From assembly GCA_021801225.1 (NCBI GenBank), contig JAJYYF010000012.1, forward strand, positions 58,656 through 122,655: a stretch of DNA of 64,000 nucleotides. Direction: 5' to 3'. The notes beneath the pieces are model-generated. The model was not told where the DNA came from. It saw only the letters and a program-made list of their open reading frames with translations, and did not search any database. The translations under genes were made by a program, and so were the position numbers. Position 1 is the first letter of the stretch; every line of letters begins with the position of its first letter. Positions 7,157 to 63,008 of this stretch are shown piece by piece. Source of the stretch: Candidatus Micrarchaeota archaeon. Lineage in GTDB: Archaea; Micrarchaeota; Micrarchaeia; Micrarchaeales; CABMGC01.

Positions 7157-7160
7157 GTAA

Positions 7161-16417: not shown

Positions 16418-16560
16418 TTAAATACAATTATACCATAAACTAAGTCTATATTTAAATCTTACTTTTTATAATTTGTCTCAAAATATTTTACTATTAATTA
16501 ATAACTTAAATAAAACATTATTATTTAAAGTTTAGGTATCTATTATTTTTATGTGTTAAT

Positions 16561-17706: not shown

Positions 17707-17710
17707 TTTT

Positions 17711-18805: not shown

Positions 18806-20151
18806 CACTAGCAGAAGATATTAGCGAGTATGCAAATACGCTATCCTATAATGAAATTCCTAGTAAAACGATAAAAATAGCTATAGATTCTGTAATAGAT
18901 ACTTTTGGCTGTGCACTAGGAGCTCAAAAAGCTACACCAGTTATCATCGCAAAGAAGACCATTAAAAAAAGTAAAGAAGGAGCATCTATTCTATGCTCAA
19001 ATGAAAAAGCTACCTCTGAAGATGCGGGTTTTGTAAATGGGATAATGTCTAGATATCTAGATTATAACGATTCTTTTGAATCAAAGGAATTTGCGCATCC
19101 TAGCGATAACATACTACCTTTATTTGCAGTAGCCGAGGAGTACGATAGAACAGGCAAAGACCTAATTCTTGCAATAGTCCTAGCCTACGAAGTACAGTGT
19201 CGTCTTTCTAAAGCCGCGAGCTTATGGAAAAGAGGTTGGGATCACACTAGCTATGGCTTAGTAAGCGTCGCAACTGCATCATCAATTTTAATGGACTCTG
19301 GAATAAAAAAGACAACACAAGCTATAAACATAGCCTTAAACTCTCATATAGCCATGAGACAGGTTCGTGCAGGAGAGCTTTCAATGTGGAAAGCAATATC
19401 ATTTCCAAATGCAGCTAAGGATGCAATATTCTCTGCAAAATTAGCAAGCAATGGCATTACCGGTCCTTCTCCAATCTTTGAAGGAGAAATGGGTTTCTGG
19501 AAACAAGTAACAGGTAAGTTTACTTTAAATACAAAATCATTCGGGAACAAAAAGAATCCATTTTTAATAAATGAGCGAATAACAAAGTTTTACCCTGCAG
19601 AGATACGTTCTCAAAGCGCAATAACAGCAGCAATAACTGCTAAAAAAGAGTTAGAAAATATTAATGATATCAAAAAAATAGAGATACTTACTACAGAAAG
19701 TGGTTACAAAGTTTTAGGAAAGGATAAAGAAAAATGGAGCCCAAAAACAAAAGAGACTGCAGATCATAGCCTTCCTTTCATTGTTTGTTCTGCCTTGATT
19801 TATGGTAAGATAACTCCTGATTCTTACTCTCAAAAAAGATTATCTGATGATAAAATCAAAAGACTTCTTAAATTAACAACTGTTAAAGAAAAAAAAGAGT
19901 TAACTGCAAAGTATCCATCTTGTATATCTAATGAAGTAAAAATAACTACAAATACAAAAACAGTTGACAAAACAGTTTATTATCAAAAAGGCCATCCTAA
20001 AAATCCAATGAGCAAAGAAGAGTTAGAACAAAAATTCATGGAACTTGCTTCAGTATCATTGAGTAAAGAAAAATCAATTGTTTTATTAAATGAACTACAT
20101 AATCTTGAAAGTATTAAAAAGATATCCTGTCTATTTGATTTATGTATGTGA
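18802..20151 (+). CDS. MmgE/PrpD-family dehydratase (2-methylcitrate dehydratase-like)
   Basis: 449 aa, the typical PrpD family length. The N-terminus reads IAIDSVIDTFGCALGA...RYLDYNDS...HPSD. Its start overlaps the icd stop (ATGA). Confidence 0.7.
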   Translation: MTLAEDISEYANTLSYNEIPSKTIKIAIDSVIDTFGCALGAQKATPVIIAKKTIKKSKEGASILCSNEKATSEDAGFVNGIMSRYLDYNDSFESKEFAHPSDNILPLFAVAEEYDRTGKDLILAIVLAYEVQCRLSKAASLWKRGWDHTSYGLVSVATASSILMDSGIKKTTQAINIALNSHIAMRQVRAGELSMWKAISFPNAAKDAIFSAKLASNGITGPSPIFEGEMGFWKQVTGKFTLNTKSFGNKKNPFLINERITKFYPAEIRSQSAITAAITAKKELENINDIKKIEILTTESGYKVLGKDKEKWSPKTKETADHSLPFIVCSALIYGKITPDSYSQKRLSDDKIKRLLKLTTVKEKKELTAKYPSCISNEVKITTNTKTVDKTVYYQKGHPKNPMSKEELEQKFMELASVSLSKEKSIVLLNELHNLESIKKISCLFDLCM

Positions 20152-20155
20152 TTTT

Positions 20156-20995
20156 ATGGAAAAAAGAGCATTTGATTTTCTCAATATATATGAACTACCA
20201 AAAAAACCAAGAAAAAAAGGAATAATAGAGATTCGTGGCCCTTATTACTCATCTATAACTTATGACTACTTAAAAGGTCTTCTTCATGACTGGAGTGATT
20301 ATTTCGATGGGTATAAATTTGCAGGTGGTTCAGAACGTTTTCTCTCAAGAAAAACAGTAAAAGATATTCTCGATGCATGTCATGATCATGATGTTTATGT
20401 ATCTACTGGGGGTTTTGTCGAGCGTATAATTGTGCAAGGTCCAAAAGCAGTTGATCAATACATAAAAGAGTGCAAGTCATTAGGTTTTGATGTTGTCGAG
20501 GTATCTAGTGGTTTTGTGGATATATCATTAAAAGATAAAGTGGAGATAGTTAAACAGGTTCAGAAAATGGGGATGAAAGCAAAACCTGAGGTCTCATTTA
20601 TGTATGATGCAGGCGGAGGTACCCATAGGGTAGGTTATGAAGGAGAGATGAAAATGCGCAGAATAGACGATGTAATCTCCGAATTATCCGCACATATTAA
20701 AGCTGGCGTAGATGTAATAATGATTGAGTCAGAAGGCCTTACTGAAGATCTTCCTCCAAACAAATGGCGTTTAGATCTAATTAAAAAAATAACAAATGAG
20801 TTTGGTTTTGACAAATTCATGTTTGAAGCATCAGATCCTCCGGTATTCAAATGGTATCTTAAAAAGTTCGGCAGAGATGTAAATCTTTTCATAGATTACT
20901 CACAGTTAGTAGAATTTAACGCTTGGCGTGCAGGACTTTGGGGAGACGAAGATATTTGGAAAGGCAAAAAGTTTAGTTATAAACCTAGTAAATAA
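20156..20995 (+). CDS. comA: phosphosulfolactate synthase (ComA) family protein
   Basis: The pattern PKKPRKKGIIEIRGPYY...YFDGYKFAGGS...VYVSTGGFVERIIVQG...LGFDVVEVSSGFVDIS matches the ComA family pattern. I prefer the ATG at 20156 (MEKRAF...) because the track start 20090 overlaps the upstream gene. Confidence 0.7.
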   Translation: MEKRAFDFLNIYELPKKPRKKGIIEIRGPYYSSITYDYLKGLLHDWSDYFDGYKFAGGSERFLSRKTVKDILDACHDHDVYVSTGGFVERIIVQGPKAVDQYIKECKSLGFDVVEVSSGFVDISLKDKVEIVKQVQKMGMKAKPEVSFMYDAGGGTHRVGYEGEMKMRRIDDVISELSAHIKAGVDVIMIESEGLTEDLPPNKWRLDLIKKITNEFGFDKFMFEASDPPVFKWYLKKFGRDVNLFIDYSQLVEFNAWRAGLWGDEDIWKGKKFSYKPSK

Positions 20996-21009
20996 CTCTA
21001 TGTGAAAGA

Positions 21010-22425
21010 ATGAAAAACTCAAAAAATAAAAATAAAAACATAAATGATGCATCAATAAATGCAGAGTTTGATTGGGAACTTTATCCAGAAACCGAGAAGT
21101 TTCTTATTTCAATAATAGATGAGTTTCTTTCAAAAAACAAATTTGCAGCTGAATTATCTAAAAAAATGTCTTTACAAACATCTACAAAGTTTTTTAACTG
21201 GGTAGATTACGTAGTAATTCCAGAAAGCAAAGTAAAAGAATCAAATCTTTTAAAACTCGGTTTTAGCAAATTTATACCTACAGATAAAAAGTGCGAATCA
21301 GGAAAGCCTTTCAAACACAGCAGATCCTACTTCTTTCCAGTTATACTAGGGAAGAAAAATGAAACTGAAGTTGCATTAAAACCAGAAGAACTTGACAGTT
21401 TTATACAAGCTATTGGTATTAAAACAAATATTCAAGGTAAACCCTTTTCACGTTTTAGGAAAGCAGTTATCTCTAAAGAAGGAAAGTACACTTTATCAGC
21501 TGTAGAAAGACGAGGATATAATGGTTTCTCAATTGATTCAAAAAACAATACTGATGATACTTTACAATACCTAAATGTCTTGAGTATGTTCTTTTCAAGA
21601 CAACGTTACTTTAAAAATGACAATGAAGGAATAAAATTTACTGAAAAACTTATCTCTTCAGCACTTTCAGTATTAAATAATGCAAGAGTATCCGACGCGT
21701 TTTTTAGATCTGAGAGGAGTTACTGGCAAAGAAGAAATTTAGCTGGGCAGATACAAAAAGCTAGACAAGATAGATTGGGTTTAGGCTGGGGGAATCAAGA
21801 TCATCACACATATCGTTCTTCAAGACAAAACTTTTCAGAAATGATTCACATTTTTGAGTTAATGGGATATAAATGTAGAGAAAAATATTATGCAGGCGAT
21901 AAAGCACATTGGGGTGCACAGATAATGGAGCATGATGTTTGCGATATAGTTGTATTTACAGATGTGGATCTTTATTCTGAAGAAACAGATATTGATTTTC
22001 CACATGAGGGTTTAGTGCAAAAGCAAACATTGGGAACAGTTGGTTTGTGGGTAGGTCTTCACGGCGAAAGTATACTTCAAGCAGGAATGCATCATTTAGA
22101 AGCAAGATTTGATTTTAATGATTTAAAAGATCAGTTACCGAAGTTCGGTGTAAATGTAATGCCACCATTTTCTAACTTCGAGTTCTTAAAACAAGCATTT
22201 ACTGCAGGTGAGGTCTGGAGTGTAGAAAAATCAAGACTGGACTTACTACTTTCTAACTCATCAATAACCAAAGAACAGTATGATAATTTTATGAAAAATG
22301 GTGCCATAGGTAGCCATATGGAGAATCTCGAGAGAACAAAGGGATTTAAAGGCTTTAATAAAAGTTCAGTTACAAAAATTATAAGAGCAACAGATCCTAG
22401 ACTGCAAGAATCATCAATGGCATGA
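21010..22425 (+). CDS. conserved hypothetical protein (471 aa; possibly a VOC-fold/DUF1338-like metalloenzyme, very tentative)
   Basis: The ORF is embedded in the operon. His-rich motifs NQDHHTYRSS, GMHHLEARFDF and GSHMENLERTKGF suggest metal binding. The family assignment rests on vague recollection only. Confidence 0.5.
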   Translation: MKNSKNKNKNINDASINAEFDWELYPETEKFLISIIDEFLSKNKFAAELSKKMSLQTSTKFFNWVDYVVIPESKVKESNLLKLGFSKFIPTDKKCESGKPFKHSRSYFFPVILGKKNETEVALKPEELDSFIQAIGIKTNIQGKPFSRFRKAVISKEGKYTLSAVERRGYNGFSIDSKNNTDDTLQYLNVLSMFFSRQRYFKNDNEGIKFTEKLISSALSVLNNARVSDAFFRSERSYWQRRNLAGQIQKARQDRLGLGWGNQDHHTYRSSRQNFSEMIHIFELMGYKCREKYYAGDKAHWGAQIMEHDVCDIVVFTDVDLYSEETDIDFPHEGLVQKQTLGTVGLWVGLHGESILQAGMHHLEARFDFNDLKDQLPKFGVNVMPPFSNFEFLKQAFTAGEVWSVEKSRLDLLLSNSSITKEQYDNFMKNGAIGSHMENLERTKGFKGFNKSSVTKIIRATDPRLQESSMA

Positions 22426-23378
22426 AAAAAGCTTCAGTGTTTACAATGCAAAATAAAAAGTTACATATTTTAGTAAATAATCCAGAGTACTTTGATGAAG
22501 AAGCAATGAAAATACTCAATAGTATTGGAAATGTAACTGCAAAAAATATGACAAACAAGGAACTCTTGAAAAAAATAAACCTTTTTGATATACTAGTTAT
22601 ACGTGTAGATACAAAACTTACAAAAGAAATACTAGATAAAGCAACAAATTTAAAGTTAATAGGTTCTGCAACCACCGGTCTTAATCACATAGACATAAAC
22701 TACGCAAAAAAGAAAAAAATAAAGATATTAAATCTTCACGGTACACATACCTTGCCAACTGCACAACACACAATTGCTTTAATGCTATCTCTTTCACGTA
22801 ATATTCCTTGGGCATTTGAAAGTCTTAAAAATGGGAAATGGGAGAGATACAGGTTTATAGGAACTCAATTAGACGAAAAAACTCTTGGGATAATTGGCCT
22901 CGGAAGAATAGGCTCACAGGTCGCAAAGTATGCAAAGGCATTTGGAATGAATGTAATAGCGTATGATCCATTTATTAAAAAAAATAAATCAGTTTCGTTG
23001 GTCTCATTAAATACTCTTTTAAAAACATCCGACATAATATCCCTTCATCCTATGCTTACAGAGTCATCAAGAAATATGTTACAATTAAAACAATTAAAGT
23101 TAATGAAAAGAACAGCATTTTTAATTAATACCTCTAGAGGTGAGGTTATAAACTCAAAAGATCTTCTTGTAGCTTTGAAAAAGCATGTAATATCTGGTGC
23201 TGCTCTTGATGTTTTTCCTGAAGAACCTTTTCTTAAAAAAGGCAATAGATTTGTAAGTTATGCACAGAAAAATAAAAATCTTATAATAACACCACACATA
23301 GGTGCATCAACAAAAGAAGCAGTTCATATGGCAGGGTTCGAGATAGCAATGAAGATCAAAAAAGAATTAAAATTATAA
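22422..23378 (+). CDS. D-isomer-specific 2-hydroxyacid dehydrogenase (phosphoglycerate dehydrogenase-like)
   Basis: Has the NAD-binding motif GIIGLGRIGSQVAKYAKAFGMNVIAYDP and the catalytic region INTSRGEVI...LDVF..EP...TPHIGAST. Its start overlaps the previous stop (ATGA). Confidence 0.8.
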   Translation: MKKASVFTMQNKKLHILVNNPEYFDEEAMKILNSIGNVTAKNMTNKELLKKINLFDILVIRVDTKLTKEILDKATNLKLIGSATTGLNHIDINYAKKKKIKILNLHGTHTLPTAQHTIALMLSLSRNIPWAFESLKNGKWERYRFIGTQLDEKTLGIIGLGRIGSQVAKYAKAFGMNVIAYDPFIKKNKSVSLVSLNTLLKTSDIISLHPMLTESSRNMLQLKQLKLMKRTAFLINTSRGEVINSKDLLVALKKHVISGAALDVFPEEPFLKKGNRFVSYAQKNKNLIITPHIGASTKEAVHMAGFEIAMKIKKELKL

Positions 23379-34523: not shown

Positions 34524-34734
34524 AAATTTTGTTTTATAACTAAAAAAACAAGCATTTAAGAATGCTTGTATTAAAAAATAGAAAAGTATATATATAACTT
34601 GATTCTAATCAATTTGTGATTTGGTATTAATCTAAAGGGTTTTGATGTGGAGATCAACCCTAAATTATTAATTTTCATCTACAGAAAACAAAAAATATCA
34701 AATTTATATTACATTTAAATGTTTGGAAAACCGT

Positions 34735-34740
34735 GGAGGT
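34735..34740 (+). promoter_or_regulatory. Shine-Dalgarno-like GGAGGT 7 nt upstream of the ATG at 34748
   Basis: The sequence is CCGTGGAGGTAAATTTAATGGAG. This supports ATG 34748 rather than GTG 34733 as the start of the giant ORF. Confidence 0.5.
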
Positions 34741-34747
34741 AAATTTA

Positions 34748-37700
34748 ATGGAGAATAAAGGAATTTTGAAGAATAAAGGAATATTTTTAGTAATGGCTCT
34801 TATGAGCATAATGTTCATTGGCTTTGTAAGCGCTAATTCAGTTTTATTTAGTTCTAACAGTCCAATCTCTAACTCATTTGAAGTTGGTCAAACCGTAAGC
34901 GGTATGATATCAATCTCCGGAAGCGCAATAACCGGAATTAATTCTTTTGCACCTCCAAATCTAACATTTACATCAAATTCTCCTGATGTAAATACTGCAA
35001 TAGAAACTTGTAACGCAAAAGGTTATTCAACATCTCCAACCTTCGTATCAAACACAGTTACTTTTTATTGTCCAGTAACATTTACAACTTCTGGAAGTTA
35101 TAATGCAGTGGTTTCTTATAAATTCAATGATTCTACTACAACATCTAATACAGTATCAAACACTATCGATTTTTATGTAAATCCTGCACCTTCCATATCA
35201 TTTAACTTATATCCATCACCATATCCAAACTCAACAAGTAACATATTCGATGAAGGTCAAACAGTAACTGCACAAATCTCATATCTTGGAACACCTGAAG
35301 AATTGAGTATATCAAATCTTATGTTTAAATCTGCTTCATCTGATTTATTCTCTTTAAATTCAAATGGTTGTTCAGTTATTCATACTATAATAATATGTCC
35401 TATAACTTTTAATTCAGTAAACTTCGCAACGCCATCTACCATAACTGCTTACTACACAGATGAATACGGTGTTTCTACATCTAACACAATATCATTGACC
35501 GTTGATCCACTATCAATATCTGCAACACCTACAAATCAGAATTTAGATGTAGGTCAAAATTCATTAATAGCATTGAATATTAATGAAGCAAGTGGTTCAG
35601 ATAACAGGTATGTAATAAGCAATTCATTATCTTATAATGGAGCTAATATAATCTCTAACTCTATATTAACAAACTCGTCTCCAACAAACTACATATTTAC
35701 TCCAAATCAACCTGGAACATACAACGCAATTTTTACTATTACTGATACAACTACTCATTACTCTGTATCTACTTCATCAAACTGGACAGTATACTCTAAA
35801 CCCGTTGTAAACATAGCAGTAAGCAATGCATTAAACTCTGATAATTCTTACTCAACAGACGCGGGACAGTTTCTTACATTCCATATTTCATCAACAGGTG
35901 GCACTGGCGCTCCGATAAAAGTATACTTAAATTGCGATCCAACAAGCATAGGTACATTCTTAGATTGTTATGGTTCTAATTTTTATTTTGATTCTACTTC
36001 ACATGGTCCTTACGCACTTGTGTTATTAAACAGTGTAAATGGATTTTCTAACACAATTTCATTACAAACTATCAACTCTCCTGCTAGCGATGTAAATATT
36101 ACTGGCACATTTAAAGATACAGGAACCTCATCTTCTGGAACTCCAAAAGAATTTGGTCTTAATCAGATAAACTTCAATACAGTTCAAACATTATTCGGAA
36201 CACCTACTCCAACAACTTCAAATACTGTACTAGATCAAGGTCAGTTTACTTATATCTCAACAATAGGCGCTGGTCAAGGTGGTGTACTTCCATATATATG
36301 GACTTGGTTTAATTCGTATAACAACAGTGCATATTCAAAAACTTCAACTACAATATGTCCAACAAACTCTGGAAAATCAACAACTACAAATACAAATATT
36401 CTAACTGCAACTTGTGGATTCCAAACCTCAACATCAACTTCACCTGGCAGTTACAACTTCAAAGTTAATACTACTGACGCAGCTAACTTCTCACTTTTCT
36501 CAGATCCAGTTTTGGTTACAGTTAACAAAGCACTTTCTATTTCCGCATCTGCATCTAACACTCAAATAGATGTGGGACAAAGTTCATTATTAACAAATAT
36601 AACTGAAGGAGGAACAGGGCCTTACTCCTATCAATGGTCAGAAGAAACCCCAGGCACAAATACATTTACTAATATAACTGGTGCTACATCAGCTACTTAT
36701 AACTTTGTAACTACTCCTACAACATCAATAGGCACATATAATTTTGAGCTTTTTGTAAAGGATAGCGCAACAACTCCAGTAACAAAAACATCAACACCAG
36801 TATCAATTATAGTGAATCCAGATCCTACTGTATCAATAACACCAAAAACAAATACAATAATGGATGTTGGTCAATCAGTTACATTCACAGCAACTGCAAC
36901 TTCTGGAACACCACCATACTCATATCAATGGTACTCAATAAGCGGCGGTTCAAACACAATTATACCGGGATCTACTTCATCTACCTACAAATATACTCCA
37001 GATCAAAGTACAGCAATAAGTCTGGGTGTTAAAATAACAGATAATGCAAACTTTATTACATACAGTACAAACATAGCTAATATAACTGTATACTCTATGC
37101 CAACTATCAGCGTACAATCTCCATCAAACACATTTATGGACGTAGGCCAATCTACAACATTGGTATCATCTGTTTCAAAAGGTACAGGTAAGTTTTCATA
37201 TTTGTGGACAGTGTCTCCACCAGGTAGTTTAATTCCATCCTGTTCTGGACTCGTATCTAGCGATTCAAATACTATAATATATACTCCATCAAGCGATACA
37301 TCTTGTACTGCACAAGTAGCTGTAACAGATATAGGTACATCTAGCTACGCAACACCAGTAATTACAGTAACTGGAATATTTACTCCAATAACAGTATATC
37401 CAACACCAACACTTTCAGAATTAACTCCAAGCAACGCAATAATAGATCTAGGTCAGTCTGAAACCTTCAATGTAATAATAAACGGAGGAAGCAACAAAGA
37501 CATGTCATTAGCATTATATCAATCACCAGAGAACAATGTTATAGGAAACGGAGTTACTGGTGCTGGAGATGGTGTTCAAACATTTCCAAATTTTGTACCA
37601 TCATTATCAGAAAATACATTCTATGTTAATGGTCTTGACGCAGGAGTAACTACACCATTCGATATTCCACCTACAAATTTAATACACATACAAATAAATC

Positions 37701-40700
37701 CTAAATTAAGTTCTACAATTTCAGCAAGTAATGACTCTATAGCTCCTAATCAAGAATCAACATTAACAAGTAGCATAACTGGTGGAACACAACCATACTC
37801 ATATCAATGGTATATGGAAACACCTGGAACAACAAACTTTGTTCCTATCAACGGCGGAACTTCAAATACTTTTAATTTCAACTTAAACTCAATGACCTCT
37901 TCTGGAAATTATGAGTTTATTTTATCAACTACAGATAGTGCATCAACACCAGAAACAGTCAACTCAATAAGCACTTCGATTACAGTAACTCAAGCCTTTA
38001 CATCACCAAAATTAGTTCTAGACATAAACGCTAGTATTAAAAATGATCCTGACAGCGGTAATATAGGTTACTGGGCTTTGGATAATATTACAAGAAACAT
38101 ACAAGTTTGGCAAACAACATTGAGAACTCCAACAACATACAACTCTTACACATCAAACATAATTGACAATGGCATAGCAACTACATTTGCGGGCGCAGTT
38201 AGTCCAGGAAGTTTAACTCCATACGAAACAAAAGAACCATATAATGGAGTAGCTACATTAAAAGGATTTGATCAAATAACATTTACTGGAACGTTTACTC
38301 CAGGTTCTTATCCTGTTTATACAAATGGCCAACAAGTAGCATCATTTAACAACGAAGGAACTGCTTCATATATACTTTTAGGCAACTATTCTAATCAAGG
38401 TAAATCTGCGTACACTCCAGCTTCAACATTTAATCATTATCTAAACGAGTACTTTACATTAGAACCATCAACAGGTTATAACTTCCAAATATGGGGTGAT
38501 ACATATACTTACTCAGTATATCCTCCAGGCAATCAAGTAATGACAGACAATAGCATATCAAACCCTGCAGTAACTGGCGATATAATAACATATCAAGTAC
38601 CTACAGTAACTATGTCATTAGCTAACGCAGAAATTATTGATTATGGTCAAACTGAGTCATACTCTGCCAGCATATATAATGGAATAGGAAACTTCCCTAA
38701 TACAATTTTATATCAATACGGTTCAAATACAATACCAACAACAATAGACTGTTCAAGATCCTTACTCGGAGTAGGTTGTTCTGGAGCAGGTACATTCATA
38801 CCTATAAATTCAGTTAACATAGGTGCCAATGGCTTAGGAAATATAAATGGAAATACAGTTTCATTTGGATCTTTTACGCCATCAATCGGAACAGATACAT
38901 ACTTTGTATCTGCTTTTGACGGTGGAACATCCCCTCCTAACACATACTCATTCATATCAAACACAAATACAATATATGTCTATCCAGATCCAACAGTTAC
39001 AACTAATATAAACAAACCAACATCTTTGGACTTAGGAAGCAGTATAACAGTATCTGCAGTAACATCTGGAGGAACTGGTAAGTTCTCTTACTCATGGAGT
39101 ACTACTGGAACATGTCCTGGATTTACTTCATCTACAAGTAACTCATTTACATACACACCAACTGGAGTAACAAATAACTGTGTAATTAATGTATTAGTCA
39201 CTGATATTGGAGTATCTCCTAATGCCTCACCATCTGAGTATTCAGTAGCAACAGCATCAACACAAACAATAACAGTCAATCCAGCATTATCCTCACCTCC
39301 AGTTTTAGTTAGTGGTAAAAGTTTTGATCAAGGAGAAACAGTAGAAATAACAACCGGTTCGGTACAAGGCGGAACACCACCTTATACTTACAACTTCCAA
39401 GTAGAGAATAAGAACCTATCAAAATTATTTTTCACATGTACACAAATAGCATCTGGAGTATGTACATTTACAGCAACTCAAACGGGAATTTATAATGGTA
39501 CTTTATCCATAACAGACAGCGCAACAATACCATCTACTGTATACAACTCAATTCCATCTTATGCAGTAAATCCTGATTTCGGATTAGAAGGAGCTTCAAC
39601 TTCCACAAATACTTTAATTGATTCTCAAATAACTCCAGTGCTAATCACTGCAAATATAATAGGAGAAGGTGGAACACCACCTTATACTTATGACTTTACA
39701 GTTCAAAATGCAACAACAGGTAAAACAGTTTTCACCGAACAAACTCAAAACTCAATGCTAGGAAATAGTATAGTGTTTAATCCACCAAATAATGGTATTT
39801 ACCAAGCAACAGCAATTATATATGATAATGCAACTCCTCAAGAATATATACAGTCCTCATACTCAAAAGCGTTCTTAGTAGGTTCTGCTGGCGCACCAAC
39901 AGCTGTAATAACACCTTCTAAGTATGTAGTTGATAGTGGTTACACCGACAATCTAACTGCACAAGTCTTTGGAGGCGTAGGTCCATTTAATGTTGAGTTC
40001 TATAACATATCTGGCCAAAAGCAAATAGGTTCTAATGTAACTATACAATCACCTGGAGGATCTAACTCAATAAGTTTCACTACAAACACTTCGTATTCAT
40101 TAGGTCTAAGTTTTAAGATAATAGTTACAGATGAACACACAGGTGTAACATTCAACTCACTTCCAAAAGAAGTAATAATAAACCCTGCATTAGGTTCAAA
40201 CCTTACATTATCAAACTCAACAATTGATATTGGACAACCGACTGTATTATCAGCAACAATACATGGAGGAACACCACCATACTCATTCACATATGAGATA
40301 AATGGCACAACTGCAGGAGAAAACAGCAATGTAATGGCAACCGATTCATCAAATGTATTAATCCCAACAATAAACACATTTGTATTATCTGGAAATATTA
40401 TAACAAAACCTGGTACATACCCTATAAATGTTCTCGTTCAAGATATTGCAGGTGGTTCAGAAGTATTATCAAATACATTAGTAGTGAATCCTGCAATGGA
40501 ACCTACGATATTAAGTATAACTCCAAACTCATTAACTACTGCACAATCAGTATCACTTTCAAGTACGAGCGAAACATACGGAACGTCACCTTATCTGTAT
40601 AACTTTGAAATAATAAATACAACTACAAACACAATACTCGTTTCTTCAGGTTATCAAACATCAAATACCTTTACTTCTTCAGCATCAAAACTAAAAGGAG

Positions 40701-41536
40701 GAAACAACGCAGTTGTTATAGTTAAGGATTCAGCAGGAACAACATCAACTTCAAATGTAATAAACTTTAATGTAAGTCAAGCAACTACTACAACAACCAC
40801 AACACCACAAAACACCGGAGGATCTCCAGGAGGAGGTGGTGGCGGTGGAGGAGCTTCAGGCGGAGGAGGCGCAGGAGGTGGAACACCACATCCAACAGTG
40901 CTTAACTTCACTAATGCAACAGATACAGGTTATGGGGTAACAAACTTTGCAGTTCCTGCTACAACTTCAGTCACTAAATTCAATGCAACATTTAACTTGC
41001 TTATGAACTTCATCTCACCAACGCAGGTAGGAGTATCAATAAATGGAAATCCATACACACTGCAGCTTAAAAACCAATCTGTATCAATAGGTACGATAGA
41101 TGGCAATGCATATTATGTAGAGTTATCTGCAATATCATACTTGCCATTGCAGAACACAGCAACAATTTACCTATACACCTCTACACCAAAGAGCCCTAAC
41201 ACAAACACAAAGTCTTCAAACAACACAGTTAATCCAAATACGCCATCGAACGTAACAACAAAATCAAATGTAACAAACAACACAAAATCTGTCAACACAA
41301 CAGTTAATACAACATCAATAAAAACTACAACAAAACAAAATACAACATCAAACACATCTAATCAATCTGCACAAACAAATAATACAAATACAACACAAGG
41401 TACTGCACCAACAAACATCAATGACAACTCTGGTTTGTACACCGCATTAGGAGCAATAATAGTAATCATAATAATTCTAGGTATACTTTACTACTTCTTT
41501 AGTAGTAAAAAGGTACCAATAAAGAATAAAAAATGA
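34748..41536 (+). CDS. giant cell-surface protein (~2,262 aa): signal peptide, about 20 Ig/PKD-like beta-sandwich repeats, one unique ~200-aa insert, Gly linker, PHPTV module, N/T stalk, C-terminal TM anchor
   Basis: Single ORF with signal GIFLVMALMSIMFIGFVSANS. Repeat hallmarks recur: (I/M/L)D(V/L/Y)GQ(S/N)... then GG(T)(P/Q)PY(S/T)Y(Q/N/D)(W/F). The C-terminus is SGLYTALGAIIVIIIILGILYYFFSSKKVPIKNKK. Confidence 0.9.
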   Translation: MENKGILKNKGIFLVMALMSIMFIGFVSANSVLFSSNSPISNSFEVGQTVSGMISISGSAITGINSFAPPNLTFTSNSPDVNTAIETCNAKGYSTSPTFVSNTVTFYCPVTFTTSGSYNAVVSYKFNDSTTTSNTVSNTIDFYVNPAPSISFNLYPSPYPNSTSNIFDEGQTVTAQISYLGTPEELSISNLMFKSASSDLFSLNSNGCSVIHTIIICPITFNSVNFATPSTITAYYTDEYGVSTSNTISLTVDPLSISATPTNQNLDVGQNSLIALNINEASGSDNRYVISNSLSYNGANIISNSILTNSSPTNYIFTPNQPGTYNAIFTITDTTTHYSVSTSSNWTVYSKPVVNIAVSNALNSDNSYSTDAGQFLTFHISSTGGTGAPIKVYLNCDPTSIGTFLDCYGSNFYFDSTSHGPYALVLLNSVNGFSNTISLQTINSPASDVNITGTFKDTGTSSSGTPKEFGLNQINFNTVQTLFGTPTPTTSNTVLDQGQFTYISTIGAGQGGVLPYIWTWFNSYNNSAYSKTSTTICPTNSGKSTTTNTNILTATCGFQTSTSTSPGSYNFKVNTTDAANFSLFSDPVLVTVNKALSISASASNTQIDVGQSSLLTNITEGGTGPYSYQWSEETPGTNTFTNITGATSATYNFVTTPTTSIGTYNFELFVKDSATTPVTKTSTPVSIIVNPDPTVSITPKTNTIMDVGQSVTFTATATSGTPPYSYQWYSISGGSNTIIPGSTSSTYKYTPDQSTAISLGVKITDNANFITYSTNIANITVYSMPTISVQSPSNTFMDVGQSTTLVSSVSKGTGKFSYLWTVSPPGSLIPSCSGLVSSDSNTIIYTPSSDTSCTAQVAVTDIGTSSYATPVITVTGIFTPITVYPTPTLSELTPSNAIIDLGQSETFNVIINGGSNKDMSLALYQSPENNVIGNGVTGAGDGVQTFPNFVPSLSENTFYVNGLDAGVTTPFDIPPTNLIHIQINPKLSSTISASNDSIAPNQESTLTSSITGGTQPYSYQWYMETPGTTNFVPINGGTSNTFNFNLNSMTSSGNYEFILSTTDSASTPETVNSISTSITVTQAFTSPKLVLDINASIKNDPDSGNIGYWALDNITRNIQVWQTTLRTPTTYNSYTSNIIDNGIATTFAGAVSPGSLTPYETKEPYNGVATLKGFDQITFTGTFTPGSYPVYTNGQQVASFNNEGTASYILLGNYSNQGKSAYTPASTFNHYLNEYFTLEPSTGYNFQIWGDTYTYSVYPPGNQVMTDNSISNPAVTGDIITYQVPTVTMSLANAEIIDYGQTESYSASIYNGIGNFPNTILYQYGSNTIPTTIDCSRSLLGVGCSGAGTFIPINSVNIGANGLGNINGNTVSFGSFTPSIGTDTYFVSAFDGGTSPPNTYSFISNTNTIYVYPDPTVTTNINKPTSLDLGSSITVSAVTSGGTGKFSYSWSTTGTCPGFTSSTSNSFTYTPTGVTNNCVINVLVTDIGVSPNASPSEYSVATASTQTITVNPALSSPPVLVSGKSFDQGETVEITTGSVQGGTPPYTYNFQVENKNLSKLFFTCTQIASGVCTFTATQTGIYNGTLSITDSATIPSTVYNSIPSYAVNPDFGLEGASTSTNTLIDSQITPVLITANIIGEGGTPPYTYDFTVQNATTGKTVFTEQTQNSMLGNSIVFNPPNNGIYQATAIIYDNATPQEYIQSSYSKAFLVGSAGAPTAVITPSKYVVDSGYTDNLTAQVFGGVGPFNVEFYNISGQKQIGSNVTIQSPGGSNSISFTTNTSYSLGLSFKIIVTDEHTGVTFNSLPKEVIINPALGSNLTLSNSTIDIGQPTVLSATIHGGTPPYSFTYEINGTTAGENSNVMATDSSNVLIPTINTFVLSGNIITKPGTYPINVLVQDIAGGSEVLSNTLVVNPAMEPTILSITPNSLTTAQSVSLSSTSETYGTSPYLYNFEIINTTTNTILVSSGYQTSNTFTSSASKLKGGNNAVVIVKDSAGTTSTSNVINFNVSQATTTTTTTPQNTGGSPGGGGGGGGASGGGGAGGGTPHPTVLNFTNATDTGYGVTNFAVPATTSVTKFNATFNLLMNFISPTQVGVSINGNPYTLQLKNQSVSIGTIDGNAYYVELSAISYLPLQNTATIYLYTSTPKSPNTNTKSSNNTVNPNTPSNVTTKSNVTNNTKSVNTTVNTTSIKTTTKQNTTSNTSNQSAQTNNTNTTQGTAPTNINDNSGLYTALGAIIVIIIILGILYYFFSSKKVPIKNKK

Positions 41537-41620: not shown

Positions 41621-41680
41621 CTGATTAATTAAAGATAATTGTGGATATTGGGTTTACTCAATAATATTTTAGGTTGTAAG

Positions 41681-44134
41681 ATGAAATCGAATATATTTTT
41701 TATGTCTGTTTTGACGAGCATTTTTGTAATGTTTGTCTTTTTGTTTAATGTTGGTTATGTAGGAGCTGCTTCTGTAGTTTCTCCTAACGTAGTGCCATCA
41801 AATGTTTTATACTATGTTCCAATAACTGTAACAGCTAATGGTCCAGTAGTCGCTAACGCACAAGTAATGTTTACCTTCCTAAAAAATAACTATTTAAGTT
41901 ATGAAAGTCACAACCTACAAAATATAGAATTCTTTTACTCAAATGGAACTATAATTCCATCTTGGCTTGAAGGAGAATCTCTTAGTCCTTCATTAAGCTC
42001 TTTATCCGTATCCTACTGGTTAAAAATAGTAAATCCAAACTTCTTACCTTCAACAGGATCTACAAATACTGTTTATATGGGATTTGGTTCAACATCAACA
42101 AACTTCTTTAATGGTAATACAGTTGGTGAATCACCTATACTATCATCATCTTATGGAGAGTATGATAACGGAGCAAACGTTTTCAGTTATTATCAATCAT
42201 TCGGAGGTTTATCTGGAAACTCTTTGCCTACCGGATGGACAAGTGTTAATAATAAAACAGGTGGCCAGACAAGCGGTTTAGCTTTAAATACAACTGTCGT
42301 AAATAATCCTTCAAATACAGTAATTTATGTTTCTGGAAATGAAAATGGTTGCGGTTGTGGTATCTTTGAAAACGCGTTACCATCAATGAGTCCTGGAAAC
42401 ACAATAGAATGGTATGGTAATATATTCAATAATCAGCCAGCAGGTACCTTTGCAGGTTTAGAATCAATTCCATCTGGACTTCCTGTTCCTTTATATACTT
42501 GGAACTACGAAACCGGCGATGGAACAACAAAACAAAATATAGCTGCGTTTAGTTTAGGTGAGTACTTAACAACTCCAAATCAACCTGGAAACTTATCAAC
42601 AGGTCCTTATCTAGACGGTGGTCAACTTACTTCATTTACAGATTCAAATACAAATAAAATATACGGAATACAGATAAACTCAGCAACATCTTTCAATGCG
42701 CTTGTTAATTACATTAGTTATGGTCAAGATACCTCTGAAAGTTTAGGATCTCCTTCATTGTTCGTGTTTTCAGTTGGACTTAACCCAGCAGGCGTAGTTC
42801 ATTCATCACCTCAAAGTATATACTGGTTAAGAACAAGAACAAATACTAAAATGCCTACACTTTCATTCGGTTCTGTATATCCATCTCCAATGGAAGCAAA
42901 TATAGTAGAATCACCAACATTAGTATACGATGGATCTACAATTTCACTAAATGCAACTGTATCAGGGGGAGTATCTCCTTATACATACAACTTTATAATA
43001 TACAATGCAACCTCTGGTAATGTATTAATTAATACGCCTACGGGACAAAATAACAATACACTTGCTAATCCAATAAAGATATCTAATACTGGAAATTATT
43101 TAGCACAAGTCGAAGTAACAGACTCAAGTTATCCAGCAAATCAAGTTGTGTACTCTGCAAATGTTCCATTCAATGCAATTCCATTTAATGGAATAGTTAT
43201 AACAACAAATACGCCTATCATAGATTTTGGTCAAACAGTATATCTTACTGTAAACGACATAAATCCATTGAATAATGGTAAAAACAACAACTTCGATTTA
43301 TTCATAAACGGAAATAACATTAATTCCGGTGCTTCATACTCAAACTTTCCAATATCAAATACAGTAGTTCCAACAACAACCGGCAACATAGTATACACTG
43401 CTCATGGAATTATGGTATCACCTTTTGAGTATCCTACATTCTCGAATAGTGTTGTAGTTACTGTAAATCCAGCATTAAGTATTTCAGCAGCAAACTCTGG
43501 ATCATCAATAACTACTGGTTCTAGTGAGACATTAACAGCTACAGTTTCTGGAGGAACACAACCATACTCATATCAATGGTACTCAATAAGCGGTAGTTCA
43601 AACACAATTATATCTGGAGCAACTTCAAGTACATATACTCCAAGCACATCAACAACCGGAAGCTTCAGTTTTGGAGTAAATGTAATAGATGCAGCAAATG
43701 CAGTAGCATATAGTAATCCTATATCCTTTACAGTAACATCTCCTCCTACAACTACCGTCAGCAGTGGAGGATTTATTCCAACTGGAGGTCCAGCACCAAC
43801 AACATCATTAACAACAATTCCTCCTGCAGTACCACCATCAACAACACCTCCGACAACAACTACAAAAACTATTGTAAATACACAGCCTTCTAATACACTA
43901 AATACAAACACAACGAACAAAACAAAAACATCAACAAACGCATTAAACACAACAAACAAAACAAAGAACGTAACTCCTGTAGTCACAACTACCGTGGCAA
44001 AGGTAGTAAACAATACGGGTTTCCCATGGTGGATTATTTTATTAATAATCATAATCATAGTCCTGTTATTGTTGTACTGGTACATGAGAAAGAAAAAACA
44101 CGCAAAGCATCATTCTGCAAAGCATAACTCCTAA
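41681..44134 (+). CDS. cell-surface protein (~817 aa): signal peptide, DUF2341-like module, YGEYDNG lectin/LamG-like module, Ig/PKD-like repeats, P/T stalk, C-terminal TM anchor
   Basis: I prefer the start MKSNIFFMSVLTSIFVMFVFLF (ATG 41681) over GTG 41639. Motifs are YYVPITVTANG...VSYWLKIVNP, SSYGEYDNGANVFSYYQSFGG, IYWLRTRTNTKMPTLSFG and GGTQPYSYQWYSISG. The C-terminus is TGFPWWIILLIIIIIVLLLLYWYMRKKKH. Confidence 0.85.
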   Translation: MKSNIFFMSVLTSIFVMFVFLFNVGYVGAASVVSPNVVPSNVLYYVPITVTANGPVVANAQVMFTFLKNNYLSYESHNLQNIEFFYSNGTIIPSWLEGESLSPSLSSLSVSYWLKIVNPNFLPSTGSTNTVYMGFGSTSTNFFNGNTVGESPILSSSYGEYDNGANVFSYYQSFGGLSGNSLPTGWTSVNNKTGGQTSGLALNTTVVNNPSNTVIYVSGNENGCGCGIFENALPSMSPGNTIEWYGNIFNNQPAGTFAGLESIPSGLPVPLYTWNYETGDGTTKQNIAAFSLGEYLTTPNQPGNLSTGPYLDGGQLTSFTDSNTNKIYGIQINSATSFNALVNYISYGQDTSESLGSPSLFVFSVGLNPAGVVHSSPQSIYWLRTRTNTKMPTLSFGSVYPSPMEANIVESPTLVYDGSTISLNATVSGGVSPYTYNFIIYNATSGNVLINTPTGQNNNTLANPIKISNTGNYLAQVEVTDSSYPANQVVYSANVPFNAIPFNGIVITTNTPIIDFGQTVYLTVNDINPLNNGKNNNFDLFINGNNINSGASYSNFPISNTVVPTTTGNIVYTAHGIMVSPFEYPTFSNSVVVTVNPALSISAANSGSSITTGSSETLTATVSGGTQPYSYQWYSISGSSNTIISGATSSTYTPSTSTTGSFSFGVNVIDAANAVAYSNPISFTVTSPPTTTVSSGGFIPTGGPAPTTSLTTIPPAVPPSTTPPTTTTKTIVNTQPSNTLNTNTTNKTKTSTNALNTTNKTKNVTPVVTTTVAKVVNNTGFPWWIILLIIIIIVLLLLYWYMRKKKHAKHHSAKHNS

Positions 44135-44270: not shown

Positions 44271-46439
44271 ATGCATAAAAATAAAATTAAGAAAAAGGAG
44301 GTCCATGGCCAATCAGCAATGGAGTACTTGATGACATATGGTTGGTCAATTCTTATAGTTGCTATTGCTCTTGTTGCACTATTTGAGCTAGGCTACTTCA
44401 ACGCAAATAACTTTTCACCAAGTGCTTGTTTATCACAAGTAGGATTTTTATGCACTAATCCAATTTTAAACTCTACTGGTAATCTTACTCTTACTGTTGG
44501 AAATAACGGCGGCCAAGATCTTGTCATAACGGGTTTGGGCTGTTCAAATTCTTCAACAGTACCAACAACATACTCTCCTGTTTTACTTACATTAGGACAA
44601 GCTCAATCAAAACAAATTACTTTTGAGTGCCAATTAAATTCACAAAGTATTGGTTCTTCATTCAAAGGATCACTTTGGCTTCAATTAAATAATGGTCAAC
44701 AAGAAATGTTAGGCACAGTATCTGCTACTGCATCAACAGGTACGCCTGTCGGTCAACCTGGTAGCAATGGCAACGGTATTTTTTATTTAGTCAATACTGA
44801 AGGTGGGAATTCTGATTTCGGAAATATAATAAAAATAAATATAAATAACGGAACTATACTTAGTGCTATAGATTCGCAGAAATCACCATTTGATGATGAT
44901 CCAGTCGGTATAGCTTTATCTGGTTCATATGCATATGTTTCAAATAAATATGGTGAAAATATTCCTGTAATAAATATAAATACAAATCAAGTAATTAATA
45001 ATATCACATCGTCTTCTTTTGGTAATTTATATGGTATTGCAATGTCTGGCAATTATATTTACGTTTTAAACAGGTACGGAAATCAAGGAGCTGGAAACAT
45101 TTTAATAATAAATAAAGCAACTAATCAAATAGTAAATAGTATTTCATCATCATCTTTTCATTATCCTTTTAGTATTGCTACATCGAATCAATACTCTTAC
45201 GTGGTAAATAGATTAGCTGACAATGTAATTATTTTAAATAATGAAACAAATACTATAATTGGTAGTATTACTTCACCTTTTTTCGATTCACCTACTGGAA
45301 TTGCTGTATCTGGTAATTATGCATATCTACTAAACTCAAATGGAGGTTCAGAATCTACTGGAAATCTACTAATAATCAATACTGCAACAAATACAGTTGT
45401 AAACAGCATCTCTTCTCCTGATTTTTATTATCCAGATGGCATTTCAATATCTGGTCAATATGCGTATGTATCAAATTTTCAATCAGGACCTTCAGGATCT
45501 TCGGCAACAACTAGTAATATTATAATAATAAATATACCAACAAACACAGTTGTTGGTAGTATATCTTCAAATTCTTTAACAGTCGGTTCTACTGGAATCG
45601 CTATCTCTGGTAATACAGGATATATCGCAAATATTAATGGAGGTTCTTATAATACTGGAAATATTTTAATATTTAATACTCAAAGTAATAGTATTTTTGG
45701 AAATATAGGGCCATTAGATCAATTAAACAGTCCTACTAGCATAACTATCGAAGGATCAACTGCTTATTTGTCAGGATCTTTTGCAGATAATAACAACATC
45801 TATGTCATAAACCTCCTTAATAACAATATTAAAACAATTGAATCTTCATTTTTAGACGATACGATGTCAATTGCATCGGATAATGGAAATCTCTATGTAA
45901 CAAATTATAAAGGAGGAACTTATGGGGATGGTAATGTTATCATATTAAATTCTAGTACTTATACTCCAGTAAATTCTATTGACTCTCAGTTATTTTTTAA
46001 TCCGACTGGGGTAGCAATATCTGGCCAATACATGTATGTGTTAAATCAATATGGTAACGGAGGTACAAATGGTAACTTATTAATAATAAATACAAAAACA
46101 AATCAAATAATAAAAAGTATTGATTCACAATTATTTCAAAATCCAATAAGTATTACTATTAATTCTAATTATGCTTATATCGTAAATCAGTATGGTGGTA
46201 TTTCTAACTCCGGAAACATTATAATAATGAATATTTCTACAGATCAATTTACCAATAATGGCATATCAAGTCCATTCTTTTCTCCAAAGCAAATTGTAAT
46301 ATCTGGTACCTATGGTTACGTAACAACAACGTCAACAAATCCAGGTAATATTGTTATTATTAATACAACTACCGATCAAATAATAAATTCATTAACTGAA
46401 AATTATTTTGATTTTCCTTTTGGAATAACTTCATCTTAA
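44271..46439 (+). CDS. class III (archaeal prepilin-type) signal-peptide protein fused to an Ig-like domain and an ~11-12-blade YVTN-type beta-propeller (722 aa)
   Basis: The N-terminus is MHKNKIKKKEVHG|QSAMEYLMTYGWSILIVAIALVALFEL: a basic stretch, G|Q cleavage context, then a hydrophobic helix. About 11-12 repeats of roughly 45 aa follow, with the core G(I/V)A(I/V)SG.YAYV.N...G...II(I)N..TN.(I/V). Confidence 0.8.
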   Translation: MHKNKIKKKEVHGQSAMEYLMTYGWSILIVAIALVALFELGYFNANNFSPSACLSQVGFLCTNPILNSTGNLTLTVGNNGGQDLVITGLGCSNSSTVPTTYSPVLLTLGQAQSKQITFECQLNSQSIGSSFKGSLWLQLNNGQQEMLGTVSATASTGTPVGQPGSNGNGIFYLVNTEGGNSDFGNIIKININNGTILSAIDSQKSPFDDDPVGIALSGSYAYVSNKYGENIPVININTNQVINNITSSSFGNLYGIAMSGNYIYVLNRYGNQGAGNILIINKATNQIVNSISSSSFHYPFSIATSNQYSYVVNRLADNVIILNNETNTIIGSITSPFFDSPTGIAVSGNYAYLLNSNGGSESTGNLLIINTATNTVVNSISSPDFYYPDGISISGQYAYVSNFQSGPSGSSATTSNIIIINIPTNTVVGSISSNSLTVGSTGIAISGNTGYIANINGGSYNTGNILIFNTQSNSIFGNIGPLDQLNSPTSITIEGSTAYLSGSFADNNNIYVINLLNNNIKTIESSFLDDTMSIASDNGNLYVTNYKGGTYGDGNVIILNSSTYTPVNSIDSQLFFNPTGVAISGQYMYVLNQYGNGGTNGNLLIINTKTNQIIKSIDSQLFQNPISITINSNYAYIVNQYGGISNSGNIIIMNISTDQFTNNGISSPFFSPKQIVISGTYGYVTTTSTNPGNIVIINTTTDQIINSLTENYFDFPFGITSS

Positions 46440-61367: not shown

Positions 61368-63008
61368 TCATTTTTTACTACCTTTATTTTTACTTACCTT
61401 CATTTTATAATAGATTATAGCTATTACAACAATTATTACTAAAACTATCAAAACTATTGCTGATCCATTGCCTCCTGAGGAAGATTGTTGTTCTGTGTTG
61501 TTTGTTGATTTTCCAGATCCAGAGTTTGAAAATACTTCTGCATAGTAATCGGTAGATCCAAAGAACTGTTGATTTATTCCAGAATTTGGTTGTTTCCATT
61601 GTTCATATATTACAATTGGATAATTTCCCTGCTTTCCGTTAGGATCTATACTTACATAAAAAGTAACATTTACTGATTGATTAATACCTAAATAATTTAA
61701 GTACGCATCTCCAGATACTGGACTTATAGGATATATTGTTTGTAGTGATAAAGAAACATTATTTGCAGGTTCGTTACCTATATTTGTTATAGTTAAATTC
61801 AGTGGTGCATATGTTGCTCCAGGAGTTAAATTATCATTTATGTTTTTTATATTAAAAACTACACTTTTAGCTATACTTAATGGAATATATTCGGTAGAAT
61901 TCATTGTAGGGCCTAAATTTGCATTTTGGTAAGAAATATGTACCGGTATGGACTCGTTATTCTGTGTATTTGGTCCTGCTTGAATTGTTATCATCTCTGT
62001 TGTAGAACTCTCAGATCCCAGGGTTCCTACAAAAACCTTAGTATTTGAATTTGTTACAAAAATATTATTTCCATTTAAAAAGTTGAGTTGAAGATTCTGT
62101 GCATCTCCACTGCCAATATTTTGTACAAGTAACTCTAATGTTTGATTTCCTCCAGAATATAATATGCTAGGATTTGTTTTTATTATACTCAATTTTATTT
62201 CAGGATTATTTACTAATATAGACATAGATAAATTTCTGTAAATTTTAGACATACTTCCATTTTGATTCTGGTATGTTATTACTGTGCTTAGATTACTCAA
62301 GCCTTTTGTTATATTGCTTAACGTAAATAAGTCTGCATTTACTGTTTGTGAAGAGCCGGCCTGTATATTTCCTAAACTAAACTCATCTGGTCCAGATACT
62401 GTAAAGTACTTATTATTTAGTACCTGAATACTTGCATTATACGCTTCACCAGTTCCAGAATTTGTCACTGTAAGCTGAATATTACTTGTTTGCCCTGGTT
62501 GAATTGTAGTTCCTGAAGGTAAATAGCCATTAACATTCAATTCAGGCATACCGTAAATATAAATTGTTATTGGTATTGTAGAAGAACCTGTTATTGTTTG
62601 GGTTGAACCACTAGCTGTTGTTGTAGTTTGATACGTGGCTAAAACATCCATAGTATATGTACCCGAAGGTATATTTTTAGGTATATTTATGTCATATGTA
62701 AAGTAAGTGTTACTCCCACCATATATACCCTGAGACATCGAATTTATCAGAGTTGATTGTGTAGGTGAAAAATTAAGCAAAGGATAACTTCCTGAAAGCT
62801 GTATATTTACATTATTTAATGTTGATGAGTAAGAGTCATATATTTGGAAAGAAATTACTGCTTTAGAACCAGCATATAATGGATTTGGGCTAATCTGTAA
62901 ATTGGTTATAGATAACGCACCAGATACTGACTGCGCATATATGCTACTAACGCTACCTAAAAAAATAGCTACCGTAATTCCTAATAATATACAATTTATC
63001 CTGTTCAT
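61368..63008 (-). CDS. COG1361/CARDB-type repeat envelope protein (S-layer-domain-like) with C-terminal TM anchor
   Basis: 546 aa with a signal peptide. Four repeats have the pattern L.V.N.G.G.A.N..(I/L)... (for example LTVTNSGTGEAYNASIQVL, LLVQNIGSGDAQNLQLNFL, LTITNIGNEPANNVSLSLQ). The C-terminus is AIVLIVLVIIVVIAIIYYKMKVSKNKGSKK. Confidence 0.6.
   Translation of the reverse strand: MNRINCILLGITVAIFLGSVSSIYAQSVSGALSITNLQISPNPLYAGSKAVISFQIYDSYSSTLNNVNIQLSGSYPLLNFSPTQSTLINSMSQGIYGGSNTYFTYDINIPKNIPSGTYTMDVLATYQTTTTASGSTQTITGSSTIPITIYIYGMPELNVNGYLPSGTTIQPGQTSNIQLTVTNSGTGEAYNASIQVLNNKYFTVSGPDEFSLGNIQAGSSQTVNADLFTLSNITKGLSNLSTVITYQNQNGSMSKIYRNLSMSILVNNPEIKLSIIKTNPSILYSGGNQTLELLVQNIGSGDAQNLQLNFLNGNNIFVTNSNTKVFVGTLGSESSTTEMITIQAGPNTQNNESIPVHISYQNANLGPTMNSTEYIPLSIAKSVVFNIKNINDNLTPGATYAPLNLTITNIGNEPANNVSLSLQTIYPISPVSGDAYLNYLGINQSVNVTFYVSIDPNGKQGNYPIVIYEQWKQPNSGINQQFFGSTDYYAEVFSNSGSGKSTNNTEQQSSSGGNGSAIVLIVLVIIVVIAIIYYKMKVSKNKGSKK

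Follow-up and report, generated by a model that had tools for sequence, protein, structure and literature searches.

A glycine hinge, a small beta domain and a membrane stalk form a probable C-terminal anchoring cassette of surface proteins in Micrarchaeota-like archaea

The 64,000-nucleotide stretch of contig JAJYYF010000012.1 analysed here (the window) encodes two large surface proteins, A and B, on opposite strands, and both carry towards their C-terminal end an almost pure run of glycine followed by the same small domain, referred to below as module M. The series of poly-Gly run, M, a stalk rich in Thr, Ser, Pro and Asn, one transmembrane (TM) helix and a short basic tail is very probably a surface-anchoring cassette with a selected hinge. 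M is a genuine and previously undescribed domain family, belonging to a kind of element, the archaeal C-terminal surface anchor, that is already known; structure prediction indicates with confidence that it is an autonomous, all-beta extracellular domain. As the arrangement recurs in about 150 independent representatives and at loci whose G+C content (GC) ranges from 31 to 62%, the unit of hinge, module and anchor is real and under selection.

Two copies of the cassette in the window

Protein A is encoded by an open reading frame (ORF) of 2267 codons (34733..41536, plus strand) that opens at a GTG at 34733. Its passenger is a long array of SprB/PKD/Ig-like repeats, in which Pfam matches only the SprB repeat and an Ig-like domain. 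The ORF list and translation give the following parts.

34748..41536, plus strand: giant surface protein A, 2262 residues from the probable ATG at 34748
34748..34840, plus strand: N-terminal signal peptide
40817..40882, plus strand: glycine hinge, GGSPGGGGGGGGASGGGGAGGG, 17 Gly in 22 residues
40883..41182, plus strand: module M, TPHPTV...IYLYTS, about 100 residues, all-beta; the hidden Markov model (HMM) envelope extends to 41188
41183..41434, plus strand: stalk of 84 residues (T 25, N 21, S 11) with many N-x-S/T sequons
41435..41500, plus strand: C-terminal TM helix, then the short basic tail SSKKVPIKNKK, to 41533

Protein B differs in its passenger, which contains a TIGR03790-family domain (in NCBIfam a model without a specific functional name) followed by long (TS)n or Ser/Thr repeat linkers; the passenger also includes other extracellular domains that have no assignment. 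Its module is separated by a linker of about 60 residues from a second domain, here called X.

9390..13844, minus strand: surface protein B, 1484 residues
13731..13799, minus strand: N-terminal TM or signal segment
12513..13544, minus strand: TIGR03790-family domain of the passenger, residues 101-444, 88 bits in NCBIfam against a cutoff of 67
10773..10817, minus strand: glycine hinge, GGGGGGGGGGAGGGG, 14 Gly in 15 residues
10491..10772, minus strand: module M, LPHPTV...IKFFEY; the HMM envelope extends to 10485
9945..10313, minus strand: domain X, residues 1178-1300, about 120 residues, ending ...CIITVFIPKDPIIGIF
9756..9821, minus strand: TM helix
9393..9755, minus strand: cytoplasmic tail of 121 residues, rich in E, K, N and D

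An earlier note on this DNA had described a poly-Gly run and a PHPTV module in two large proteins on opposite strands, all of which is present at the positions listed. It had also placed a stalk and TM anchor right after the module; this is the case in A, and in B the linker and domain X intervene. The similarity that the note saw between the two modules is significant in a formal pairwise alignment, with composition-adjusted BLASTP giving 37/97 identities (38%) at an expect value (E) of 2e-17. When A and B are compared at full length, the module is the sole significant segment (E 1e-13), all else having E >= 5. Exactly two copies of M are found in the window by tblastn and the family HMM, the latter scoring the copy in A at i-E 7e-31, and a six-frame scan for [GAS] runs with at least six Gly likewise returned two only, each directly before a module.

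Both hinges are coded by mixed glycine codons (GGA, GGT and GGC) in a window of 31% GC. An identical 15-nt string, GGCGGTGGAGGAGCT, is common to the two coding stretches (40829..40882 on the plus strand and 10773..10820 on the minus strand); it could be chance in low-complexity GGN DNA, or it could be a recombination junction by which passengers are swapped onto the anchor cassette.

Module M as a domain family

The two copies belong to a wider family. A two-sequence profile of the window copies, searched against 1.84 billion cluster representatives, matched 264 representatives at E <= 1e-3, 42 of them at E <= 1e-10; a search of this kind, with a model built from the pair, had been proposed in the earlier note. 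Family statistics are drawn from the best 150 of these 264 representatives, the census of architectures and glycine runs covers 152 proteins (123,416 residues), and an alignment of 52 diverse members is the basis for the conservation analysis, the AlphaFold2 model and the member scans against Pfam and NCBIfam.

No known family was recognised in M by the note, and none was matched in Pfam, NCBIfam or the PDB sequences. Pfam-A returned 0 families at E <= 1 for the two window modules, and when the 52 members were scanned singly no family was matched by more than one of them (best E 0.0013). NCBIfam, whose models include TIGR04213, TIGR01564 and TIGR01567, gave no consistent match to the 52 modules (best E 0.0029) and, with A and B at full length, matched only TIGR03790 in the passenger of B; the best E of the M profile against PDB sequences was 0.12. 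No literature was found on M or on poly-Gly in surface proteins of DPANN archaea. The Mia14 paper reports giant PKD, beta-propeller and CARDB surface proteins and describes no common C-terminal domain.

The structure prediction that the note had proposed yields a confident domain of nine beta strands and no helix, with a predicted local distance difference test score (pLDDT) of 90.1 and a predicted template modelling score (pTM) of 0.80. The module of protein B, modelled as part of a two-domain segment, has block-mean pLDDT values of about 81-97 over residues 1-97. Foldseek returned 0 matches at E <= 1e-3 for M against the PDB, the best template modelling (TM) score being about 0.5 and the insignificant neighbours including the Methanosarcina S-layer domain DUF1608 (E 0.17) and domain I of the dengue E protein (E 0.47). 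Against BFVD there were also 0 matches at E <= 1e-3, the best being an uncharacterised protein (E 0.011, TM-score 0.55).

Eight columns of M are conserved in at least 90% of the 52 sequences (N42, I44, P46, G50, L60, L81, Y86 and P88), and the core motifs are NF(I/V)(S/T)P..G and SY(L/I)P. The His of PHPTV is variable, the position being occupied by L, K or H, and no Ser, Thr, Cys, His or Asp in the alignment is both conserved and fit for catalysis. Pairs of Cys occur at columns (37,89) in 10/52 members and at columns (20,110) in 9/52; the two Cys of each pair always occur together, the pairs are mutually exclusive, and 33 members have neither. The module of B falls in a subtype with such a pair. 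Sequons are found at two conserved positions, with a median of 4 per module. The lack of catalytic residues, the beta fold, the sequons and the Cys pairs together fit a folded, glycosylated extracellular domain of structural or binding type, not an enzyme.

Relatives and their genes

One relative, P0001, is a 90% identical ortholog of A from a closer strain and ends in the same manner, with a TM helix and a short basic tail. In comparing it with A (34748..36200, plus strand), the N-terminal ~400 residues are far more diverged, while more than 1000 residues elsewhere are nearly identical; the pattern suggests diversifying change at what would be the distal tip of the fibre. A word-indexed homolog search gave nothing for the two-module alignment and only two proteins for the 52-sequence alignment; as P0001 is present in the collection, the scant yield is taken to reflect insensitivity, not rarity of the family. 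A scan of metagenome contigs with a tight 8-sequence alignment gave 8 loci, and two scans of viral contigs gave no relatives.

A genome tends to have several M-bearing genes, and these frequently adjoin one another. A Candidatus Micrarchaeota contig (L001), the only hit when GTDB species representatives were searched with narrow patterns from the window copies, has three adjacent genes with four copies of M, including tandem modules. In a second locus (L002) a 3185-aa giant with M adjoins a 182-aa mini-protein (10001..10549); a 247-aa membrane protein encoded between the two was considered as an archaeosortase-like enzyme and rejected, having no Pfam hit and no Cys. A contig from ENA metagenomes (L003) is syntenic with the window over 29.8-44 kb and encodes a 2877-aa ortholog of A, P0002. 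On a 651-kb metagenome contig (L005), a 2916-aa giant without a C-terminal anchor (332..9082) ends 10 nt before a 499-aa gene (9092..10591) whose product consists of a signal peptide, an Ig-like domain, X, poly-Gly, M, a stalk and a TM helix; the two may be an unanchored giant and its anchored partner. Across the family the passengers are SprB/Ig-like repeats as in A, TIGR03790 as in B, YDG/MBG/Big_3_5 domains, or nothing recognisable.

The glycine run

A run of G, S and A with at least five Gly stands right before M in 93 of the 112 representatives that have at least 45 upstream residues, and with at least eight Gly in 64 of them. Conversely, of the 106 Gly runs of at least six G in the 152 proteins, 91 fall in the interval from -6 to +12, counted in residues from the start of M, and a distance above 22 residues is seen for only three, which a single protein contains. 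The usual linkers of M-bearing proteins are Ser/Thr repeats, and poly-Gly is nearly confined to the boundary between passenger and M. No such run is seen between the tandem modules of L001, between M and X of protein B, or in the mini-proteins in which M directly follows the signal peptide. The lack of a run in proteins without a passenger indicates that the glycine is a joint between cargo and module.

Wherever upstream sequence is available, the run is present at the cassette loci, with one L001 gene having a short version (GEGGG). As these loci span 31-62% GC, the run is not a composition artefact. Among close orthologs its length varies from 8 to 17 Gly, and on these sequence comparisons its presence is judged to be under selection and its exact length not. 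An origin as simple repeats made by slippage was also considered; the mixed codons and the high-GC relatives oppose a purely mutational origin.

Stalk, membrane helix and mini-proteins

Downstream of M a TM helix follows in 133/150 proteins, usually with 10-30 mostly basic residues after it. The spacer from M to the TM helix is bimodal, being 40-59 residues in 58 proteins and 140-199 in 45, the long class arising because domain X intervenes. The architectures of the 152 proteins are M (90), M-X (45), X-M (13), X-M-X (3) and M-M (1). Where M is the last domain, the median length of the stalk up to the TM helix is 49.5 residues, with 58/90 proteins at 40-59; where X is last, the median is 32. 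Stalk composition in the family is T 28%, S 13%, P 11% and A 11%.

In one subclass the TM helix is replaced by a C-terminal amphipathic helix, for example ...GVIGSVFQQIISFLQSLLSHI. The mini-proteins, of about 180-230 aa, consist of a signal peptide, M, a Thr-rich stalk and such an amphipathic helix, with no TM helix; they are P0160, P0159, P0116, P0138, P0089 and P0100, together with the one in L002. The module, which the earlier note had suggested to be a base or socket element of surface fibres, is thus not confined to fibres: it occurs in these passenger-less proteins and with passengers that are not fibres, such as TIGR03790.

Domain X

Domain X, a beta domain of about 120 residues, is found in 61/152 family proteins, before or after M. 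It has an invariant Trp and two near-invariant Cys, its C-terminal pattern is C-x-[IV]-x-F-x-[IV]-P-x-D-P-[IV]-[IV]-[GA]-[LI]-[FM], and Pfam, NCBIfam and PDB sequences gave no usable match to it. The bimodal spacers had raised the suspicion that X is a diverged copy of M; hhalign shows the two to be unrelated. An AlphaFold model covering residues 1023-1304 of B (pLDDT 84) has M and X folded independently as beta domains, with a disordered linker between them. The best Foldseek match of this model in the PDB is the ankyrin ZU5 domain 3kbu_D (prob 1.00, TMt 0.50), with an E of 7.8e-3 that is not significant, followed by the GAIN domain of BAI3 (4dlo_B, prob 0.94), whose E is not significant either. 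Some ZU5-type and GAIN domains self-cleave at the turn before a late or the last strand. In 49/60 members of X an Asp-Pro, an acid-labile bond, lies exactly before the last strand, and as judged from the model X may be a self-cleaving ZU5/GAIN-like module.

Proposed function and alternatives

The cassette would be a reusable C-terminal unit that Micrarchaeota-like (DPANN) archaea attach to many different extracellular passengers. What M itself does within it is less certain; on sequence grounds, it is an evenly balanced proposition that M is a pedestal at the level of the envelope, and the narrower idea that it docks to the S-layer specifically is possible but doubtful. A glycosylated stalk of 50 residues, at an assumed 0.25-0.35 nm for each, would hold M some 12-18 nm above the membrane, which is about the height of an S-layer, and M as a fixed pedestal could there have the S-layer or other proteins with M as its docking partner. 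The Gly run, free of side chains and not glycosylatable, would act as a free swivel that uncouples the movement of passengers, whether adhesin repeats or enzymes, from the base. On this view the mini-proteins, which lack a passenger, would be pedestals with nothing on top and possibly struts of the S-layer.

In Ca. Micrarchaeum harzensis an S-layer lies over a pseudoperiplasm of 20-25 nm (10.1101/2021.04.28.441871). Its anchoring has no explanation as yet, and the study suggests that another protein, one with a TM domain, acts as the stalk (10.1101/2021.04.28.441871). The estimated height of M and this unexplained anchoring favour the reading of M as a pedestal.

Several observations weigh against this reading, besides the assumption on which the height estimate depends. 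The fixed position next to the membrane that the earlier note had claimed is supported by the narrow M-to-TM spacing when M is last, but X lies between M and the membrane in 48/152 proteins (M-X and X-M-X), so that the height of M is not strictly fixed. The note had also asked whether a Gly run and a TM anchor always accompany the module; this is the common state, but 19/112 representatives have fewer than five Gly before M and the mini-proteins have no run, which makes the hinge common and not obligatory. An 831-aa PKD-like surface protein of the window (41639..44134, plus strand) combines a T/N-rich stalk with a TM anchor in the absence of M; M is thus not needed for anchoring as such. No S-layer gene is found in the 64-kb window, and the taxonomic attribution of the family rests on one labelled metagenome-assembled genome (MAG), that of L001.

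The fullest form of the proposal, which is speculative and rather unlikely to hold in all its parts, is that M is what connects the membrane to the S-layer in Micrarchaeota and in related DPANN archaea. Mini-protein struts would hold the S-layer 20-25 nm out, giants would plug into the lattice, and the poly-Gly would pass through or bend at the lattice plane; with X as a possible ZU5/GAIN-like domain that cleaves itself at Asp-Pro, the whole would be a modular envelope-docking system specific to host-dependent archaea.

Among the alternatives, the one that survives best, though still with a low probability, is that M mainly serves homo- or hetero-oligomerisation, bundling stalks into dimers, trimers or patches independently of the S-layer, with the Gly run letting the passengers splay. 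The adjacency of several M-bearing genes per genome and the existence of tandem M-M copies agree with this; the amphipathic helices that end the mini-proteins could form coiled coils, and an edge-strand interface could be built from the conserved core of NF(I/V)(S/T)P...G and SY(L/I)P. Within M, however, there is no sequence sign of oligomerisation such as heptads, and bundling overlaps with the role of a pedestal and does not exclude it.

It is less likely still that M is lectin-like or otherwise ligand-binding, recognising the cell's own glycocalyx, S-layer glycans or a component of the host surface, with the Gly run a mere linker. M is a small extracellular beta domain that the mini-proteins display alone on a stalk, and carbohydrate-binding or attachment folds, rotavirus VP8* among them, appear in the list of its weak structural neighbours, but all with TM-scores <= 0.3 and E > 0.2. 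Neither its fold nor its sequence, however, significantly matches a carbohydrate-binding module (CBM) or lectin, hydrophobic and structural types predominate among the residues it conserves (N, I, P, G, L, Y, P) with no pattern of an aromatic platform, and its membrane-proximal position beneath very long passengers is a poor one from which to reach a host.

Processing is an improbable explanation. The junction of Gly run and M would in that case be a site at which a glycyl-glycine endopeptidase, a sortase-like enzyme or autocatalysis releases the passenger, or M itself would be self-cleaving in the manner of SEA or GAIN domains. Giant surface proteins of eukaryotes commonly have an autoproteolytic domain close to the membrane, the position of the Gly run is closely tied to the N-terminus of M, and the partner X has the weak ZU5/GAIN-like fold matches and conserved Asp-Pro described above. 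Against this, M lacks an invariant nucleophile (Ser, Thr, Cys, His or Asp), including the His of PHPTV, and has no fold match to SEA, GAIN or ZU5; the small number of loci at hand show no peptidase gene as a regular neighbour, and the variation of the run from 8 to 17 Gly among close orthologs is what is expected of a linker.

That biased composition, or a recent duplication within the genome, produced the similarity and that it has no wider significance is of negligible probability: A and B are indeed strongly N/T/S-rich and the genome has 31% GC, but the composition-adjusted E of 2e-17, the match of the family HMM to 264 clusters including loci of 45-62% GC, the near-invariant residues at specific positions and the confident fold all oppose it.

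Comparison with known anchoring systems

The cassette resembles the C-terminal ends of archaeal surface glycoproteins, such as the S-layer proteins of Halobacterium and Haloferax and the surface and solute-binding proteins of Sulfolobales, in which a passenger is followed by a Thr/Ser-rich stalk, one TM helix and a basic tail; the layout of stalk plus TM helix in these proteins is well known. It differs from them in that a beta domain of about 100 residues caps the stalk and is preceded by a near-pure Gly run, neither of which is, to our knowledge, part of the anchors of Halobacterium, Haloferax or Sulfolobales. The mini-proteins recall SlaB, the S-layer stalk of Sulfolobales, in having a signal peptide, a beta domain, an elongated spacer and a C-terminal membrane segment. 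This layout is found in P0160, P0159, P0116, P0138, P0089 and P0100, and the likeness is one of layout, not of homology, and would be a functional analogy only. The stalk here is Thr-rich and that of SlaB a coiled coil.

A constant domain placed before a TM helix and basic tail on otherwise unrelated proteins is also seen in the PGF-CTERM/archaeosortase system with PGF-pre-PGF (TIGR04126, TIGR04213). No PGF motif precedes the TM helix in either window protein, where A reads ...NDNSGLYTALGAIIVIIIILGILYYFFSSKK and B reads ...NLKTIFGNILVIITVIILLAIIYLLYRIVEGRK, and neither full-length A or B nor any of the 52 modules matches the PGF-CTERM or PGF-pre-PGF models of NCBIfam. Membership in PGF-CTERM was rejected for lack of both motif and model match; no archaeosortase (ArtA) gene was seen among the ORFs scanned in the 64-kb window.

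As a constant, small, cell-proximal domain of long and variable adhesins, M can further be likened to SEA in mucins, GAIN in adhesion G-protein-coupled receptors and the retention module of LapA/MpIBP-type RTX adhesins, domains that determine the way in which the fibre is held at the envelope. M resembles none of them in sequence or fold and has no candidate catalytic residue, and only X is weakly ZU5/GAIN-like. The DUF1608/TIGR01567 domain of the Methanosarcina S-layer (PDB 3u2g), an archaeal envelope beta domain, is among the better Foldseek neighbours of M; its match is not significant (E 0.17, TMq 0.47, root-mean-square deviation 7.9 A, 9% identity) and has no HMM counterpart.

Genomic context

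Besides the 831-aa protein, the window encodes other surface proteins without M, so that M marks only a subset of the surface proteome.

44271..46439, plus strand: 722-aa LVIVD-repeat protein, no anchor
61368..63008, minus strand: 546-aa protein with CARDB and NPCBM-associated domains

A cluster at 15062..23378 encodes an Mqo-like FAD oxidoreductase, citrate synthase, isocitrate dehydrogenase and MmgE/PrpD, together with a ComA-like phosphosulfolactate synthase and a 2-hydroxyacid dehydrogenase. From this central-metabolism cluster it appears that the organism, although probably a member of DPANN, retains enzymes of the tricarboxylic acid (TCA) type. The window also encodes a class I CCA-adding enzyme, mevalonate-pathway kinases and DUF996, and a 112-nt tRNA match on the minus strand (14916..15027), given by Rfam and not by ARAGORN, fits an intron-containing archaeal tRNA. 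Taken together with the TCA-cycle enzymes, these genes mark the DNA as archaeal.

Significance for the archaeal cell surface

DPANN archaea such as Micrarchaeota live attached to hosts, and giant surface proteins are prime candidates for the contact. M may bear on how these proteins and the S-layer are fixed to the cell. As the profile of M marks the cell-proximal end of proteins in at least 264 clusters, it allows a part of the surface proteome to be listed in MAGs. Long pure-Gly runs that are nearly exclusive to one boundary across 31-62% GC also provide an unusually clean natural case of a selected poly-Gly linker. M is a compact target for structural and binding work that is predicted to fold well, and M and the mini-proteins offer a concrete candidate for the S-layer stalk that was proposed in the Micrarchaeum harzensis study.

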